This document shows, piece by piece, positions 47,672 to 52,093 of a stretch of 52,093 bases of DNA. A program made the translations under genes and the position numbers. The notes under the pieces are model-generated. The model was not told where the DNA came from and did not search any database. It saw only the letters and a list, made by a program, of their open reading frames with translations. The DNA comes from an uncultured Rhodospirillaceae bacterium (lineage in GTDB: Bacteria; Pseudomonadota; Alphaproteobacteria; UBA9219), in contig CAZVCG010000012.1 of the NCBI GenBank assembly GCA_964626265.1, forward strand, positions 1 through 52,093. Direction: 5' to 3'. The first letter of the stretch is position 1, and the number at the start of each line of letters is the position of its first letter.

Positions 47672-47889
47672 AAGAAGGTCTTGTTTGAGTTTCGCCAGCC
47701 ATGCTCGACATATTTTATGCCAAGTTGAACGGCGTTGATGCCGGAATGGTCATACTCAACAACATTATGTGGCAAATTTAAGAGCGGAAAAAAGTCAAAA
47801 CCGTCGCATTTGCGCGGTTCGGCGTTCGTAATATCGCTTTGTATCTGCTTTATGTGCAAGGCGACGGGTAGAGATAAGCTATTGGTCAT
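47668..47889 (-). CDS. small hypothetical protein, 73 aa
   Basis: ATGA overlaps with both the trmJ-like stop and the SDR start. Confidence 0.6.
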   Translation of the reverse strand: MTNSLSLPVALHIKQIQSDITNAEPRKCDGFDFFPLLNLPHNVVEYDHSGINAVQLGIKYVEHGWRNSNKTFL

Positions 47890-48650
47890 TTGCCGCCGTT
47901 GCCTTTGCGCGGGCCGGTTGAAAGCGCCTTGATCACGCCGTGCCATGTGCGGATTTCCTGTTCCGTCATTTCGGCGCGTTGAAGCATGTTTTGCAGGCTG
48001 CGCGCCATGGTGGGTTTCATCTCGGGAGTCGAGAAAAAGCTGGTTTCGTCGAGCAATGTTTCGAGGCGGTGGTAGAAGTTCAGGTATTCCTCGCGCGTCG
48101 CGGGGCGGCTTTTGCCCATGTCGATTTGCGCGGGCGGGGTGCCGTCGTTCGCCTGATACCATTCATAACCGATGAGCAACACCGTTTGCGCGAGGTTCAG
48201 CGACATGAACTCTGGGTTGAGCGGGATGGTGATCTTGGCGTTGGCTAGCACGATGTAATCGTTGATGAGGCCCATGCGCTCCGGCCCGAACATGACGCCG
48301 ACCTTTTGGCCGCCGTCGATGTGCTCTTTCATGTCGGGGATGGCGGCGCGAGGCGTCATGATCTTGTTGACCATGTCGTGCGAGCGCGACGTGGTGGCAT
48401 AAACGTAATTCAGGTCAGCGATGGCTTCTTGCACCGTGTCGAACAGGCGGGCGGATTTAAGAATATCGTCAGCACCCGAAGCGGCGGCCTCCATGCGTTG
48501 TTGATGCACTGTGCCGAGCGGCCACGGGTCGCGCGGCGCGACGATCCGCAGCTCAGGCAAAGCGCAATTCGCCATGGCGCGCGCCGTCATGCCGATATTT
48601 TCGACCAGTTGCGGATGGACGAGGATGATGACGGGACGGGACATGGGCAA
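47886..48650 (-). CDS. trmJ: tRNA/rRNA 2'-O-methyltransferase, TrmJ/LasT family
   Basis: ENIGMTARAMANC, ASGA, FGPERMGL and SLNLAQ. Confidence 0.88.
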   Translation of the reverse strand: MPMSRPVIILVHPQLVENIGMTARAMANCALPELRIVAPRDPWPLGTVHQQRMEAAASGADDILKSARLFDTVQEAIADLNYVYATTSRSHDMVNKIMTPRAAIPDMKEHIDGGQKVGVMFGPERMGLINDYIVLANAKITIPLNPEFMSLNLAQTVLLIGYEWYQANDGTPPAQIDMGKSRPATREEYLNFYHRLETLLDETSFFSTPEMKPTMARSLQNMLQRAEMTEQEIRTWHGVIKALSTGPRKGNGGK

Positions 48651-48706
48651 GGATTATCAGATATCCATATGACTAGCCAAGTCCATGAATTTATAAGGCT
48701 TTCAGT

Positions 48707-49255
48707 TTAACCGTTCGTCGGCTTTTGGGCCGCCGCTTTGAGAATAATCCTTGTCGTCCTTGCGGGATTGTGGGGATCGTCCGTGACGTATTCTTTGTCC
48801 AGAAAGCCTTTCACCTTGTTGGGCTCAATGCCTGCTCTTACAATTTCCCGATGTCTTACTCGCTAAGTATCCGGGGTCGCTTCAGAATAGCACGCATAAG
48901 AGGGCACCACATGTTCCGTTACAGTTGGGGGGTCTGTGCGGCTGTCGGTAAAAGAACGTACTGGCGAGAAAGGCGTATCGCTTAAACATCTATCGACTTC
49001 TTTCCGTTGCAAGGAACCTTGGCGGTGAATGACGCTGTATTCCCTGCCTACAGGGAAATAGGGCTTGTGAATTTCGATGAAAAGCTCGTTGAGCGAAGGT
49101 TCCGTCAGGCCGTTATTCGGCGAGGGCGCGGTCGTATTAAACGTTATGAGCGTATGGCCGCCATCCTTGCGCGGGATGTCAGCGTCGAATCTCAACGGCA
49201 CGGCCCCCATGACACGTTCATACTGTTTCAAAAGAGCAATCATGTTTGTCTCCAA
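48707..49255 (-). pseudogene. hypothetical ORF with an internal TAG (48863-48865)
   Basis: 130-codon ORF followed in frame by 51 further sense codons. Confidence 0.3.
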
Positions 49256-49375
49256 AATTTTCTTCGGCTACGTCGGCATTAGCCCAGCGGCGGACAAATG
49301 CTATCATGCGCCGCTATTCTTGCAGACAGGACGTGCCTAGCGCAACAGCGGGGTTTGGTTAACGCTCGCGCAAAG

Positions 49376-51046
49376 TTAGGCCACCTTTAACTTAACGGTA
49401 GGCATGGCCGCCATTTTAGGCGCATTTTGGCCAAGTTGATCGAAGGCAAGCCTATAGTTGTATGCGTCCACCAAAGCCATCAACGATGCGCCGATGATGT
49501 CTTTCGAAATGCCGATGGTCGTCCAACGCTTTTTGGTGCGTTTGTCCATCACGTCCAGAACCACGCAAGTCGTCGCTCCCGCCGCTTCTTTAGGGTTTAA
49601 GATGGCGACGTTGTAATCGACGAGCTTAAGGTTCTCCATTTCCGGATAGTTGCCATTCATGGCGTTGCGCATGGCGCGATCCAGCGCGAAAACAGGTCCG
49701 TCGCCCACGGCTTCACCCGATACTTCGAGGCGTTGCATCTCGGCGGTCAATTCCTTGCCCGCAATTTTCATTAACACTGAAGCCCGCGCGACGTTGCGCA
49801 GTTTGCCGTCGTCGTCGAATTCGCCTTCGTCAACGATACGGAATTTCTTGACCTCGAAGGGCCTTTTGAGACGTCCGAGTTTCCGCAAGGCCAAAACGGC
49901 AAAGCTCGCCTCTGCAAGTTCGTAGGAATAGCCTTCGTCTTCCCTCTTTTTAACGGAGGCAAGAAGCTCTTTTAGTTTCGGGTCTTTGGGATCGACATCG
50001 ATGCCGTGAGCCTCAAGATTGATAAGAAGGTTCGCTGCGCCTGCCTGATCGGACACAAGAATTTGCCGTTCATTGCCAACGGTTTCCGGTTCGATATGTT
50101 CATAAAGCTTGGGATTCTTCCTGACGGCTTGACCGTGAACACCGCCTTTGTGCGCGAATGCGTCCGCGCCGACATAAGGTGCGCGGGGATTGCGCTTGAG
50201 GCGCATTAAGTCGGCAAAATCGTCCGCGAGCTTTTTAAGGCCGCCAAGATTTTCTTTGGCAAAACCGAGAGTATAACCCATTTTCAACACGAGATTGGAC
50301 ATGATCGTGTTGAGGTTGGCGTTGCCGCAACGTTCGCCTAACCCGTTGAGCGTTCCTTGCACCATGCGGCATCCGGCGCGGACGGCTTCTTGCGTGTTTG
50401 CGTCGGCGAGGCCGCCGTCGTTATGGCAATGGATGCCAAGACGCGCTCCGGGGATTTCCTTTTTCACGGTTGTGACGATTTCGAACACTTCGTGAGGCAA
50501 CATGCCTCCGCGGGTGTCGCACAGGACAAGCCAATCCGCGCCTGCTTCATGAGCTGCCCGCAAACATTTCAGGGCGTAAGCGGGATTGTCCTTATAACCG
50601 TCGAAGAAATGCTCGGCGTCGAATACGAATTCCTTACCGAGGCTTTTAGCGTAGGTGACACTGTTACGGATCATCTCCAGATTTTCGTCTTCGGTCGCGC
50701 CCAAGGCTTCGGTCACATGGGCCATCCACGTTTTGCCGAACAAGCAGATAGTGTTGGCGTTGCTATGGACAACCTTTCGAAAACCTTCGTCGGTTTCTGG
50801 AGTTAGGCCTTTTTTGAGCGTCATACCGAAGGCCGTGAAACGGGCGTTTTTCAAATTCGGCGGATTTTTGAATAGATCATTATCCGTTTCGTTTGCGCCG
50901 GGCCAGCCGCCCTCGACATAGTCGATGCCGAAAAGGTCGAGCCACCGCGCAATGGTTTTCTTATGCCTGGGTGAATATTTTACGCCCGGCGTCTGTCCGC
51001 CGTCACGAAGACTGGTGTCAAATACATATACGCGATTGTCCGACAT
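49376..51046 (-). CDS. cimA: citramalate synthase
   Basis: DTSLRDGGQ, YVEGGWPGAN, FDAEHFFDG, GERCGNA and AHKGGVH; downstream of cysS. Confidence 0.92.
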   Translation of the reverse strand: MSDNRVYVFDTSLRDGGQTPGVKYSPRHKKTIARWLDLFGIDYVEGGWPGANETDNDLFKNPPNLKNARFTAFGMTLKKGLTPETDEGFRKVVHSNANTICLFGKTWMAHVTEALGATEDENLEMIRNSVTYAKSLGKEFVFDAEHFFDGYKDNPAYALKCLRAAHEAGADWLVLCDTRGGMLPHEVFEIVTTVKKEIPGARLGIHCHNDGGLADANTQEAVRAGCRMVQGTLNGLGERCGNANLNTIMSNLVLKMGYTLGFAKENLGGLKKLADDFADLMRLKRNPRAPYVGADAFAHKGGVHGQAVRKNPKLYEHIEPETVGNERQILVSDQAGAANLLINLEAHGIDVDPKDPKLKELLASVKKREDEGYSYELAEASFAVLALRKLGRLKRPFEVKKFRIVDEGEFDDDGKLRNVARASVLMKIAGKELTAEMQRLEVSGEAVGDGPVFALDRAMRNAMNGNYPEMENLKLVDYNVAILNPKEAAGATTCVVLDVMDKRTKKRWTTIGISKDIIGASLMALVDAYNYRLAFDQLGQNAPKMAAMPTVKLKVA

Positions 51047-51134
51047 AATAACCTCAAATTGAAAAACAGATTCATGACCGCCTTGGGCGGTGGGGCAGAG
51101 TCAAATTGTGGGTGAGGCCGCGTGTGTTTCCTGC

Positions 51135-51233
51135 TTACGCAGGAATAATAATCGCAATAATAATCGCGTTGATGCGCGCCGCAGTGGATGCGGTCGTAAG
51201 GCTGTTATCCGATGTGATAAGAGCGTTGCGCAT
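51135..51233 (-). CDS. Ile/Thr-rich leader peptide of cimA (32 aa)
   Basis: MRNALITSDNSLTTASTAARINAIIIAIIIPA*; six ATT codons among the last nine sense codons. Confidence 0.8.
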   Translation of the reverse strand: MRNALITSDNSLTTASTAARINAIIIAIIIPA

Positions 51234-51240
51234 GGGAGGC

Positions 51241-51269
51241 AGTGTAAGAATCCGCCCCTGATTTGTAAA
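51241..51269 (-). promoter_or_regulatory. sigma70-type promoter of the cimA leader
   Basis: TTTACA-17 nt-TACACT, with 7 nt between the -10 and the leader ATG. Confidence 0.5.
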
Positions 51270-51327
51270 GAGGCGATTTAGTTGCGCCAAAGAGTTTGGT
51301 TAACGGTGTGACATTTACCTTAACGTC

Positions 51328-51355
51328 AAAAAAAGCCCCTCCCTTGCGGGAGGGG
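51328..51355 (-). terminator. intrinsic terminator after cysS (family-B-like hairpin)
   Basis: cccctccc-gcaa-gggagggg followed by c and T7 on the minus strand. Confidence 0.85.
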
Positions 51356-51378
51356 AAAAGATGAATCTTTAATTACCT

Positions 51379-52093
51379 TTATTCCCTGCGCCACGTGGTG
51401 CCTTGTGGGCCGTCTTCGAGAATAACGCCTTGCGCGGCGAGCGTATCTCTAATTCGATCCGCTTCGGCGAAGTTCTTGGCTATGCGCGCGGCTAGGCGAG
51501 CGGCGATCTGTGCCTCAACCTCTTCATTCGAAGGTCCGCTTGTCACGCTACCCTTAAGCCATGCTTCGGCGTCTTGCTGAAGAATGCCCAGCGCATCGCC
51601 GCATGCGAGGATCTGCGCCTTAAATCTGGCTTGAGCAGCGGGCGCGTTGGCGCGGTTGAGTTCGTTGACGAGCTCATGCACTACTGAAATCGCCAGCGGC
51701 GTGTTCATGTCGTCAAGCAACGCGTTTTCGAACGCCTCCGGCGGCGTTGTTTTATCCGCCTTAACCGATGCCACATTGCGCAACGCGCCATACCAGCGGT
51801 CGAGCGTGGTTTTCGCATGCTTCAGGCCATCAATGGTGAAATCAAGCGGCGAGCGGTAGTGCGTAGAGAGCAAAGCAAGGCGCAAGGCTTCGCCCGGCGC
51901 TTCGGCCAGCAGGTCGCGGATGGTGAAAAAGTTGCCGAGCGATTTCGACATCTTTTCGCCGTTCACGATCAAAAAGCCGTTGTGCGCCCAGTATTTCGAA
52001 AACAGCGGCGTGCCGTTGGCGCAACGGCTTTGCGCGATTTCGTTTTCGTGGTGCGGGAAGATGAGGTCAAGCCCGCCCGCGTGAATGTCGAAC
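51379..52093 (-). CDS. cysS: cysteine--tRNA ligase, C-terminal part (runs off the window)
   Basis: [26 protein letters not shown] and THYRSP. Confidence 0.97.

Follow-up and report, generated by a model that had tools for sequence, protein, structure and literature searches.

A probable isoleucine-codon leader with a putative leaderless start upstream of cimA in uncultured bacteria

How could the supply of isoleucine (Ile) be reported to cimA, with which the citramalate route to isoleucine begins, by a short leader that is followed by no classic terminator? The question is raised by a contig of 52,093 nt (CAZVCG010000012.1 of assembly GCA_964626265.1; the whole stretch is called the window below) of an uncultured Rhodospirillaceae bacterium, which originates from hot-spring metagenomes. 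On its minus strand, a small open reading frame (ORF) is flanked by cysS, which ends at 51379, and by a gene for a 556-aa citramalate synthase. A sequence-only reading of this DNA had taken the ORF for a probably leaderless leader peptide that senses Ile and threonine (Thr). Our comparative analysis suggests that the ORF is very probably a genuine Ile-codon leader of cimA, and we consider it highly likely that it serves as a sensor that raises cimA expression when charged Ile-tRNA is scarce. For the system as a whole, our best explanation is a ribosome-operated Ile sensor with a Rho-shielding output on cimA, which we put forward tentatively.

Isoleucine codons upstream of cimA

Eight codons of the leader ORF specify Ile and four specify Thr; the latter are ACA, ACG, ACC and ACT, each used once. 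The unit GCG-ATT-ATT-ATT occurs twice in tandem (51167-51144), and GGGTGAGG/CCTCACCC has a single occurrence within the 52-kb window. The codon counts, the tandem unit and the ATG at 51233 had been named by the sequence-only reading and are present on the minus strand. The predicted fold of the 201-nt leader was more stable than that of 200 out of 200 shuffled sequences (z = -3.7). This result and the architecture shared by 16 other loci together indicate that the element is more than a product of chance.

Among species-representative genomes, the 80 best cimA loci belong to Rhodospirillales and allies and are about 50% identical. An Ile-rich upstream ORF (uORF) preceded the gene in 5 of them, against 3 on the reverse complement, which is the background level. 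The nearest CimA proteins of a large protein collection did have such an ORF: small ORFs ending in IIIxIIIPA or IIISLIIPA were present on contigs whose CimA proteins are 85%, 58%, 53% and 54% identical. When metagenome contigs were searched with the DNA pattern of the hairpin that encloses the leader stop codon, 8 leader loci were recovered, 7 of which were new, while the other 18 matches had no such ORF. A profile built from 12 peptides and run against 1.84 billion proteins retrieved 11 leader peptides with E values of 2e-10 to 3e-4, including 5 new ones, and on their contigs the leader again stood before cimA, often in the order gltX-cysS-leader-cimA-trmJ. The resulting family consists of 17 loci, for 16 of which DNA is available (the window and 15 others); P0128 is a protein-only locus, and no identity was assigned to the product downstream of its leader. 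The leader precedes cimA or a cimA remnant in 14 of the 15 further loci with DNA. The sequence-only reading had proposed that conservation of the Ile run be checked in collected cimA upstream regions, and the 16 further loci with the same element bear this out.

The distribution of the leader follows the phylogeny of the enzyme. A maximum-likelihood tree of 48 CimA proteins has a single branch, with a support of 100/100, that divides the 12 sequences with a leader from the 36 without one. The element therefore appears to be old and to have been inherited together with cimA. Its hosts are uncultured bacteria, and two of the source genomes have a name, one being labelled Alphaproteobacteria and the other Bdellovibrionales. 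Two loci differ in what follows the leader. In L086 (Ga0209340_1015454), an ORF of at least 101 aa resembles no part of CimA but the C-terminal regulatory domain LeuA_dimer (E 5e-5) and seems to represent a truncated cimA that still carries its leader. In L113 (Ga0485107_556037, 1004-1342), cysS and the leader are followed by a 113-aa ORF without a Pfam match instead of cimA; this contig is only 1.3 kb long and ends before any cimA could appear.

The leader peptides, which are 32 to 38 codons long, contain 5-9 Ile and 0-4 Thr residues each. Their conservation is confined to a C-terminal block, and within this block to Ile: the peptides end in ..II(I)x(x)IIIPA, with IIPA-stop unchanged throughout the family, and the last Ile stands 2 codons before the stop. 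The Ile-run codons lie 2-9 codons before the stop, where a ribosome would be parked during a shortage of Ile-tRNA. In these runs AUU, a codon read by wobble, was counted 78 times, AUC 13 times and AUA 3 times, so that AUU accounts for 83%, unlike in the adjacent cimA genes, which favor AUC (4 AUU and 15 AUC in the window cimA). All of the 16 non-AUU codons in the runs are synonymous on the leader strand, whereas they give Met on the opposite strand. These observations uphold the Ile part of the earlier claim, since the conserved runs stand before cimA. The Thr part did not hold: Thr sensing was rejected because the Thr codons are not conserved among the peptides.

The start, the stop hairpin and the tract beyond

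The geometry of the putative promoter suggests where the transcript begins. In the window, the -10 element ends 7 nt before the leader ATG, and no Shine-Dalgarno (SD)-like word lies between them. The best -35/-10 pair placed the end of the -10 element 6-8 nt before the ATG in 14 of the 16 members with DNA, compared with 1.4% of 2867 control ATGs drawn from the same loci, and 15 of the 16 have no SD-like word at -15 to -4 of the leader ATG. The transcript thus very probably begins at or next to the leader AUG, and the leader would be leaderless in the sense of lacking a 5' untranslated region (UTR). The promoter-like pair, the missing SD and the probable leaderless start had all been pointed out by the sequence-only reading, and the arrangement is retained across the family.

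A feature that the sequence-only reading had not named is a helix at the 5' end: the first 12 nucleotides of the predicted transcript, which include the AUG, can pair with a segment immediately before Ile run 1. In the window, AUGCGC (51233-51228) faces GCGCAU (51177-51172). The mean duplex energy was -12.1 kcal/mol for a member's own partner and -10.4 kcal/mol for the partners of other members (permutation p = 0.00035), with -7.8 +/- 2.7 for shuffled partners. Compensatory variants occur in L083, L084, L092, L106 and L115, as exemplified by GCGCAAAG/CUUUGCGC in L083, GCACAGC/GCUGUGC in L084 (GCA_050180745.1) and AUGAGC/GCUCAU in L092. This AUG helix accounts for the conserved N-terminus MRNA of the peptides. 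RNAalifold returned no consensus structure for the full leader ORFs, because the helix registers differ between members.

At the other end of the ORF, a hairpin encloses the stop codon. Its stem is identical in 16 of 16 members, while the loop reads GUAA, AUAA, UUAA, CUAAG, GUAAA or GUAG, and the free energy ranges from -9.2 to -11.7 kcal/mol. The family consensus continues with an A-run, ACAC, a CGRCCUCACCC-like core, CA.AUUUG, a U-run, unrelated hairpins and the SD of cimA; in the window, the order from 51127 to 51101 is the A-run, ACAC, CGGCCUCACCC (with CCUCACCC at 51117-51110) and CAAUUUG. This region is poor in G. Of the 45 nt that follow the hairpin in the window, 22 are C and 6 are G; over the 16 members this segment averages 10.1% G and 34.2% C, with minimum free energies (MFE) of -0.2 to -7 over 48 nt. 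G amounts to 25% in the N-terminal part of the leader ORF and to 32% in the 5' UTRs of leader-free cimA genes, and only 5% of 80 such 5' UTRs hold a 45-nt segment with 5 or fewer G. In stop-aligned members the G-poor zone extends from -30 to +60 around the stop and is broken only by the 3' arm of the hairpin. Of the elements that the sequence-only reading had described in this part, all are at the places given, and the C-rich, G-poor tract proved to be a trait of the whole family. The accgcc/ggcggt hairpin fared otherwise as a conserved element, as unrelated hairpins occupy its position in relatives. The U-run begins 31-39 nt past the stop in 12 of the 16 members and is a possible pause or release site for RNA polymerase.

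The absence of a classic terminator, also claimed earlier, was confirmed at both levels. A terminator scan of the window detected no hairpin followed by a U-tract between the leader stop and cimA, and no conserved intrinsic terminator was found in the family, where marginal and non-homologous candidates occur only in L082, L113 and L114. Past the cysS terminator, the sole terminator-like match on the minus strand of the window was a weak hairpin around the first Ile run. Nor was an RNA switch detected. In the short-spacer subgroup, RNAalifold supported the stop hairpin only and no alternative pairing. Folding with the RNA under a ribosome masked, whether the ribosome stood on the first Ile run, on the second or at the stop, did not consistently open the cimA SD. 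An ermC-like switch (1:2, 2:3, 3:4) operated by the freed 3' arm of the hairpin was rejected, since the targets of this arm were no better than those of shuffled arms (z about 0). Pairing between the A-run and the U-run in L082, L083, L094 and L115 is weak. We also discarded a second reading frame through the tract, as a frameshift product or from an ACG start, because single-base indels between members shift the frame (judged by eye), and self-pairing of the two window copies of CAAUUUG, which is not retained in the close relative L114 (GCA_964649675.1).

The hairpin around Ile run 1 (51153-51168, minus strand), together with the AUUAUUAUU that follows it, appeared terminator-like in a consensus scan. 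By eye, a hairpin with altered pairs can be read at this position in relatives: GCGAU/AUCGC in L081, GCAAU/AUUGC in L106, GCCA/UGGC in L104 and AUGCC/GGCAU in L084. A weak terminator within the ORF that aborts transcripts lacking a ribosome is speculation.

Table 1. Features of the cysS-cimA interval, in the direction of transcription (coordinates in the window)
Feature	Position	Strand	Description
cysS intrinsic terminator	51328..51355	-	CCCCTCCC-GCAA-GGGAGGGG + T7; 8 pairs, 7 of them G-C; T-run
Promoter-like pair	51241..51269	-	-35 TTTACA 51269-51264; 17-nt spacer; -10 TACACT 51246-51241
Leader ORF	51135..51233	-	32 codons + TAA; ATG 51233, stop 51137-51135; peptide MRNALITSDNSLTTASTAARINAIIIAIIIPA
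5'-terminal helix, 5' strand	51223..51233	-	AUGCGCAACGC; includes the start codon
5'-terminal helix, 3' strand	51171..51183	-	UGCGGCGCGCAUC; just upstream of Ile run 1; also in MFE folds
Small hairpin CGCGAU-UAUU-AUUGCG	51153..51168	-	Ile run 1 (51164-51156) in and around the loop
Ile run 2, AUU AUU AUU	51144..51152	-	last codon within the 5' arm of the stop hairpin; Pro-Ala before the stop
Stop hairpin P1 UUCCUGC/GUAA/GCAGGAA	51128..51145	-	TAA (51137-51135) in the loop; -10.5 kcal/mol
C-rich, G-poor unstructured tract	51083..51127	-	candidate Rho loading zone; CCUCA can pair with the cimA SD
Hairpin ACCGCC-CAA-GGCGGU	51077..51091	-	lineage-specific, common to L114; unrelated hairpins in other members
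U-run UUUUU	51062..51066	-	67-74 nt past the stop; 10 nt after the ACCGCC/GGCGGU hairpin
cimA	49376..51055	-	SD GAGG 51055-51052; ATG 51046; 556 aa, citramalate synthase

The surroundings of the leader are listed in Table 1. The product of the window cimA scored 573 bits against TIGR00977, the NCBIfam model of citramalate synthase (cutoff 450), and contains the Pfam domains HMGL-like, HCS_D2 and LeuA_dimer. The predicted terminator of cysS probably keeps cysS transcription apart from the cimA leader. The order gltX-cysS-(leader)-cimA-trmJ, the last gene encoding a SpoU methylase, is present in the window (47886-52092) and in L083, L112, L114 and P0128, and is kept among the leader lineages though their CimA proteins are only about 50% identical. 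In L081 (GCA_028716765.1, 814-1325), the closest relative with a named genome, cysS is separated from the leader of cimA by genes for a ParE toxin and a 75-aa partner, which are encoded on the opposite strand; leader and promoter are intact.

A proposed path from ribosome position to cimA expression

The lack of any alternative RNA pairing makes the parked ribosome itself the likeliest effector, and because a C-rich, G-poor tract is found throughout the family, Rho-dependent attenuation stays the leading output model. The output that we favor, with some reserve, is one in which a ribosome halted at the Ile codons would cover a zone on which Rho could otherwise load. If the transcript starts at the AUG, a 70S ribosome must load on the bare 5' end, and it would do so at or near the AUG while transcription proceeds. 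Once about 55-60 nt have been made, the RNA would pair back onto the AUG, and hence each transcript would probably be read by one pioneer ribosome in step with the polymerase. When Ile-tRNA is plentiful, this ribosome would reach the stop and depart, the stop hairpin would refold, and a G-poor zone of about 90 nt, composed of the U-rich Ile-run region, the hairpin or hairpins and the C-rich tract, would be left naked. Such a layout resembles the rutA-boxB-rutB arrangement of lambda tR1. Rho would then load on the naked zone and end transcription at the U-rich pause or in early cimA; weak pairing between the CCUCA tract and the cimA SD may aid this by slowing the onset of translation. When Ile-tRNA is scarce, the ribosome would be parked near the end of the ORF, melt the stop hairpin and cover the 5' third of the zone. 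About 25 nt would be left free at the time the polymerase meets the U-run, Rho would not load, and cimA would be transcribed and translated. Given the usual ribosome footprint, a ribosome whose A site is on run 2 has to open the stop hairpin, and one on run 1 leaves the hairpin intact. Sequence comparison shows the ORF, that it is specific for Ile and that it is tied to cimA. It likewise shows the geometry of the promoter, the AUG helix, the hairpin around the stop and the G-poor tract, and equally the lack of a conserved terminator and of an RNA switch; leaderless initiation, one-shot loading, Rho action and shielding are steps that we infer.

Several observations weigh against this explanation. 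A ribosome at the last Ile codon covers the RNA to about the stop, and the C-rich core lies about 10 nt beyond, so that shielding should be partial. Shielding also presupposes that the loading zone takes in the U-rich Ile region, and Rho binds AUU repeats poorly. Both arms of the stop hairpin are invariant, with no compensatory change in 16 sequences, for which the model gives no explanation. Among RNA runs, none contained the sequence of the window or of L092, and the sludge runs with the L094 organism yielded two 151-nt contigs that cover the cimA 5' end only and are uninformative. Finally, the tract can also pair with the SD or start of cimA, and good compensatory cases are found in L086, L084, L092 and L106.

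This last point forms the basis of the main rival, translational attenuation, which could coexist with Rho. In it, the C-rich tract (CCUCACCC and the flanking ACAC) would be an anti-SD that masks the SD and start codon of cimA, a ribosome stalled on the Ile runs would relieve the masking through refolding with the freed 3' arm of the stop hairpin, and any effect on transcription would be secondary polarity. The compensatory cases comprise CUACUCAUC x GAUGGUAG in L086, where an altered tract faces a newly created ribosome-binding site, AUCUUA x UAAGAU in L084, and CACAGAACG x CGUUCUGUG across the GUG start in L092 and L106 (-21 and -22 kcal/mol). In addition, short-spacer members have a local hairpin over the SD, and precedents exist in the logic of ermC and in the mycobacterial leaderless polycysteine small ORFs (sORFs; 10.1101/834739). 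When narrow segments were compared, pairing between tract and SD region of the same member reached -7 to -11 kcal/mol, marginally better than in cross pairings (p=0.04 with 11 lineages, 0.10 with all 15); with wide segments, however, this difference is absent (own -11.5, cross -10.9, shuffled -10.1 +/- 3.2). Moreover, in about half of the members, including the window, the free RNA leaves the SD unpaired to about 50%, and the tract, at least 19 nt past the stop, is out of reach for a ribosome halted at the Ile codons. No conserved partner was detected for the freed arm of the hairpin (z about 0), and no path of relief is visible, and an anti-SD leaves 45 nt of G depletion unexplained. We therefore regard SD masking as rather unlikely to be the output, and retain Rho shielding as the preferred one.

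The remaining alternatives appear much less probable. Stabilization of the cimA mRNA by a ribosome parked near the leader end, which would block decay by RNase E or RNase J that depends on the 5' end, as likened to the stall-stabilized erm mRNAs, would give the G-poor AU/C-rich single strand a role as a cleavage zone. A helix-closed 5' end followed by a long single-stranded A/U/C-rich tract, and the failure to find either a terminator or an RNA switch, would suit such a mechanism; the stalled ribosome, however, leaves the tract uncovered, and the 5' helix and stop hairpin would protect the 5' end even if no ribosome stalled, which makes decay control improbable. We consider classical attenuation slightly more improbable still: here, the variable spacer hairpins, ACCGCC/GGCGGU in the window, would be cryptic or weak terminators whose antiterminator was missed by the alignments. 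The spacer hairpin of L082 is indeed followed by AUUUUAUU, the same hairpin as in the window is followed directly by UUUU in its close relative L114, and L113 combines a weak hairpin with AAUUUUAUUU. In most members, the window included, no U-tract follows the hairpin. The spacer hairpins lack homology to one another and face no competing segment, and the stop hairpin is the one structure that RNAalifold supports. Very improbable, finally, is the idea that the ORF encodes a functional small hydrophobic protein or that an antisense ORF is the true gene. The tail AIIIAIIIPA is hydrophobic, and a plus-strand ORF at 51106-51261 (51 aa) likewise reads ..AGIIIAIIIAL..; the opposite strand reads IIIAIII because the reverse complement of (AUU)n gives AUA codons. 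A membrane helix would accept Leu or Val, yet nearly every residue in the runs is Ile, and the remainder of the peptide is unconserved. The antisense ORF was rejected as a gene, since it is not conserved as an ORF: it lacks a start codon in 5 of 16 members, and its Ile becomes Met where the sense strand has AUC. Both the promoter geometry and the link to cimA suit the minus-strand ORF.

A further possibility concerns the tract itself. Its core, CGRCCUCACCC, is antisense to positions 39-50 of tRNA-Ile(GAU), a stretch that runs from the 3' strand of the anticodon stem through the variable loop to the first base of the T stem, and the leader may pair with the cognate tRNA or mimic its partner. 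The core, CGACCUCACCC(U) in general and CGGCCUCACCC in the window (51101-51127, minus strand), is antisense to GGGUGAGGUCG of the E. coli/Methylobacterium type. The match to E. coli ileV is 11-12 nt and exact in L081, L104, L112 and L113, where 0-1 of 100 shuffled sequences gave a match as long, while in the window it is 8 nt, or 11 pairs with one G-U in a hand alignment. The Methylobacterium tRNA segment reads as that of E. coli, whereas Azospirillum, Sphingobium, Ensifer and Paracoccus read GCGUGAGGUCG; that is, 4 of 5 alphaproteobacterial tRNA-Ile genes have GCGUG instead of GGGUG, the reference tRNAs being from other lineages than the leader hosts. The target region is base-paired in the folded tRNA, and GAGGUCG is found in other tRNAs too. 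The match may be due to chance, since the shared UGAGG is also SD-like, and we hold a role of tRNA pairing to be very unlikely. If true, it would join a hungry-codon sensor with direct tRNA pairing, and would explain the invariance of the tract, to which it gives a role and which Rho loading and SD masking leave unexplained.

Relation to known leader systems

Sensing of charged tRNA through a leader peptide is textbook biology. The cimA leader shares with the classical attenuators (ilvL/ivbL, thrL, hisL, trpL and leuL) an ORF that is rich in codons for the end product and lies directly upstream of a biosynthetic gene, regulatory codons near the stop, a stop beside or inside a hairpin, and a ribosome whose position would report charged tRNA. 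In contrast, an SD-led start, an intrinsic terminator and an overlapping antiterminator belong to the classical systems, and the cimA leader has none of these three. The target, cimA, and the uncultured hosts are also different. The sequence-only reading had considered that comparative studies might already have predicted cimA leaders in some alphaproteobacteria. We could not confirm this: no cimA leader peptide was found in the literature searched, and a cmscan of 50800-51500 against Rfam 15 with E up to 10 reported the cysS terminator only, with no match to a leader family or T-box.

Leaderless leader peptides are known from Corynebacterium, where those of ilvB, leuA and trp begin without a 5' UTR. 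The mycobacterial polycysteine sORF Ms5788A (10.1101/834739) is a leaderless sensory sORF that needs no intrinsic terminator, as the cimA leader would be if its transcript begins at the AUG. In that system stalling raises downstream expression; the sORF itself pairs with the downstream SD, which the stalled ribosome unmasks directly (10.1101/834739). The 3' end of the cimA leader ORF, in contrast, pairs locally with GCAGGAA past the stop, and the candidate anti-SD lies at least 19 nt beyond the stop. The phylum, the amino acid and the target gene all differ.

The nearest parallels to the proposed output are tnaC, speFL and cruR, where the ribosome stays at the uORF end and thereby covers a neighboring rut (Rho utilization) site (PMC12360218). 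The cimA leader shares with these a C-rich, G-poor, unstructured tract past the stop and the lack of both an intrinsic terminator and an RNA switch, and its ribosome, too, would be held at the extreme 3' end of the ORF; this likeness is compositional and geometric only. However, arrest in tnaC, speFL and cruR is caused by the nascent peptide with a small molecule or metal, whereas the cimA leader would use hungry Ile codons and has no evident arrest motif. It further differs from them in its probably leaderless start and invariant stop-codon hairpin. In mgtL and corL of Salmonella, translation that depends on proline codons or Mg sets the access of Rho through RNA refolding (PMC12360218). The proposed model has in common with them that the speed at which a short ORF is translated decides on Rho termination in the leader, but in mgtL and corL alternative stem-loops hide or expose the rut site, and none such was found in the cimA leader.

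Our analysis points to a set of features that no described attenuator is known to unite. Within a proteobacterial-type lineage, the leader probably starts without a 5' UTR, its AUG is closed by a helix once about 55 nt have been made, its stop codon sits in an invariant hairpin, and neither a terminator nor an RNA switch was detected. Should the parked ribosome indeed be the antiterminator, by shielding a Rho loading zone, the sensing of hungry codons would be joined to an output of the tnaC type, and attenuation would be possible without competing hairpins. Being short and modular, the element could be used as an Ile-responsive part. Isoleucine synthesis by way of citramalate would gain a dedicated regulator, and the leader marks deeply divergent uncultured lineages that share the cysS-leader-cimA-trmJ synteny.

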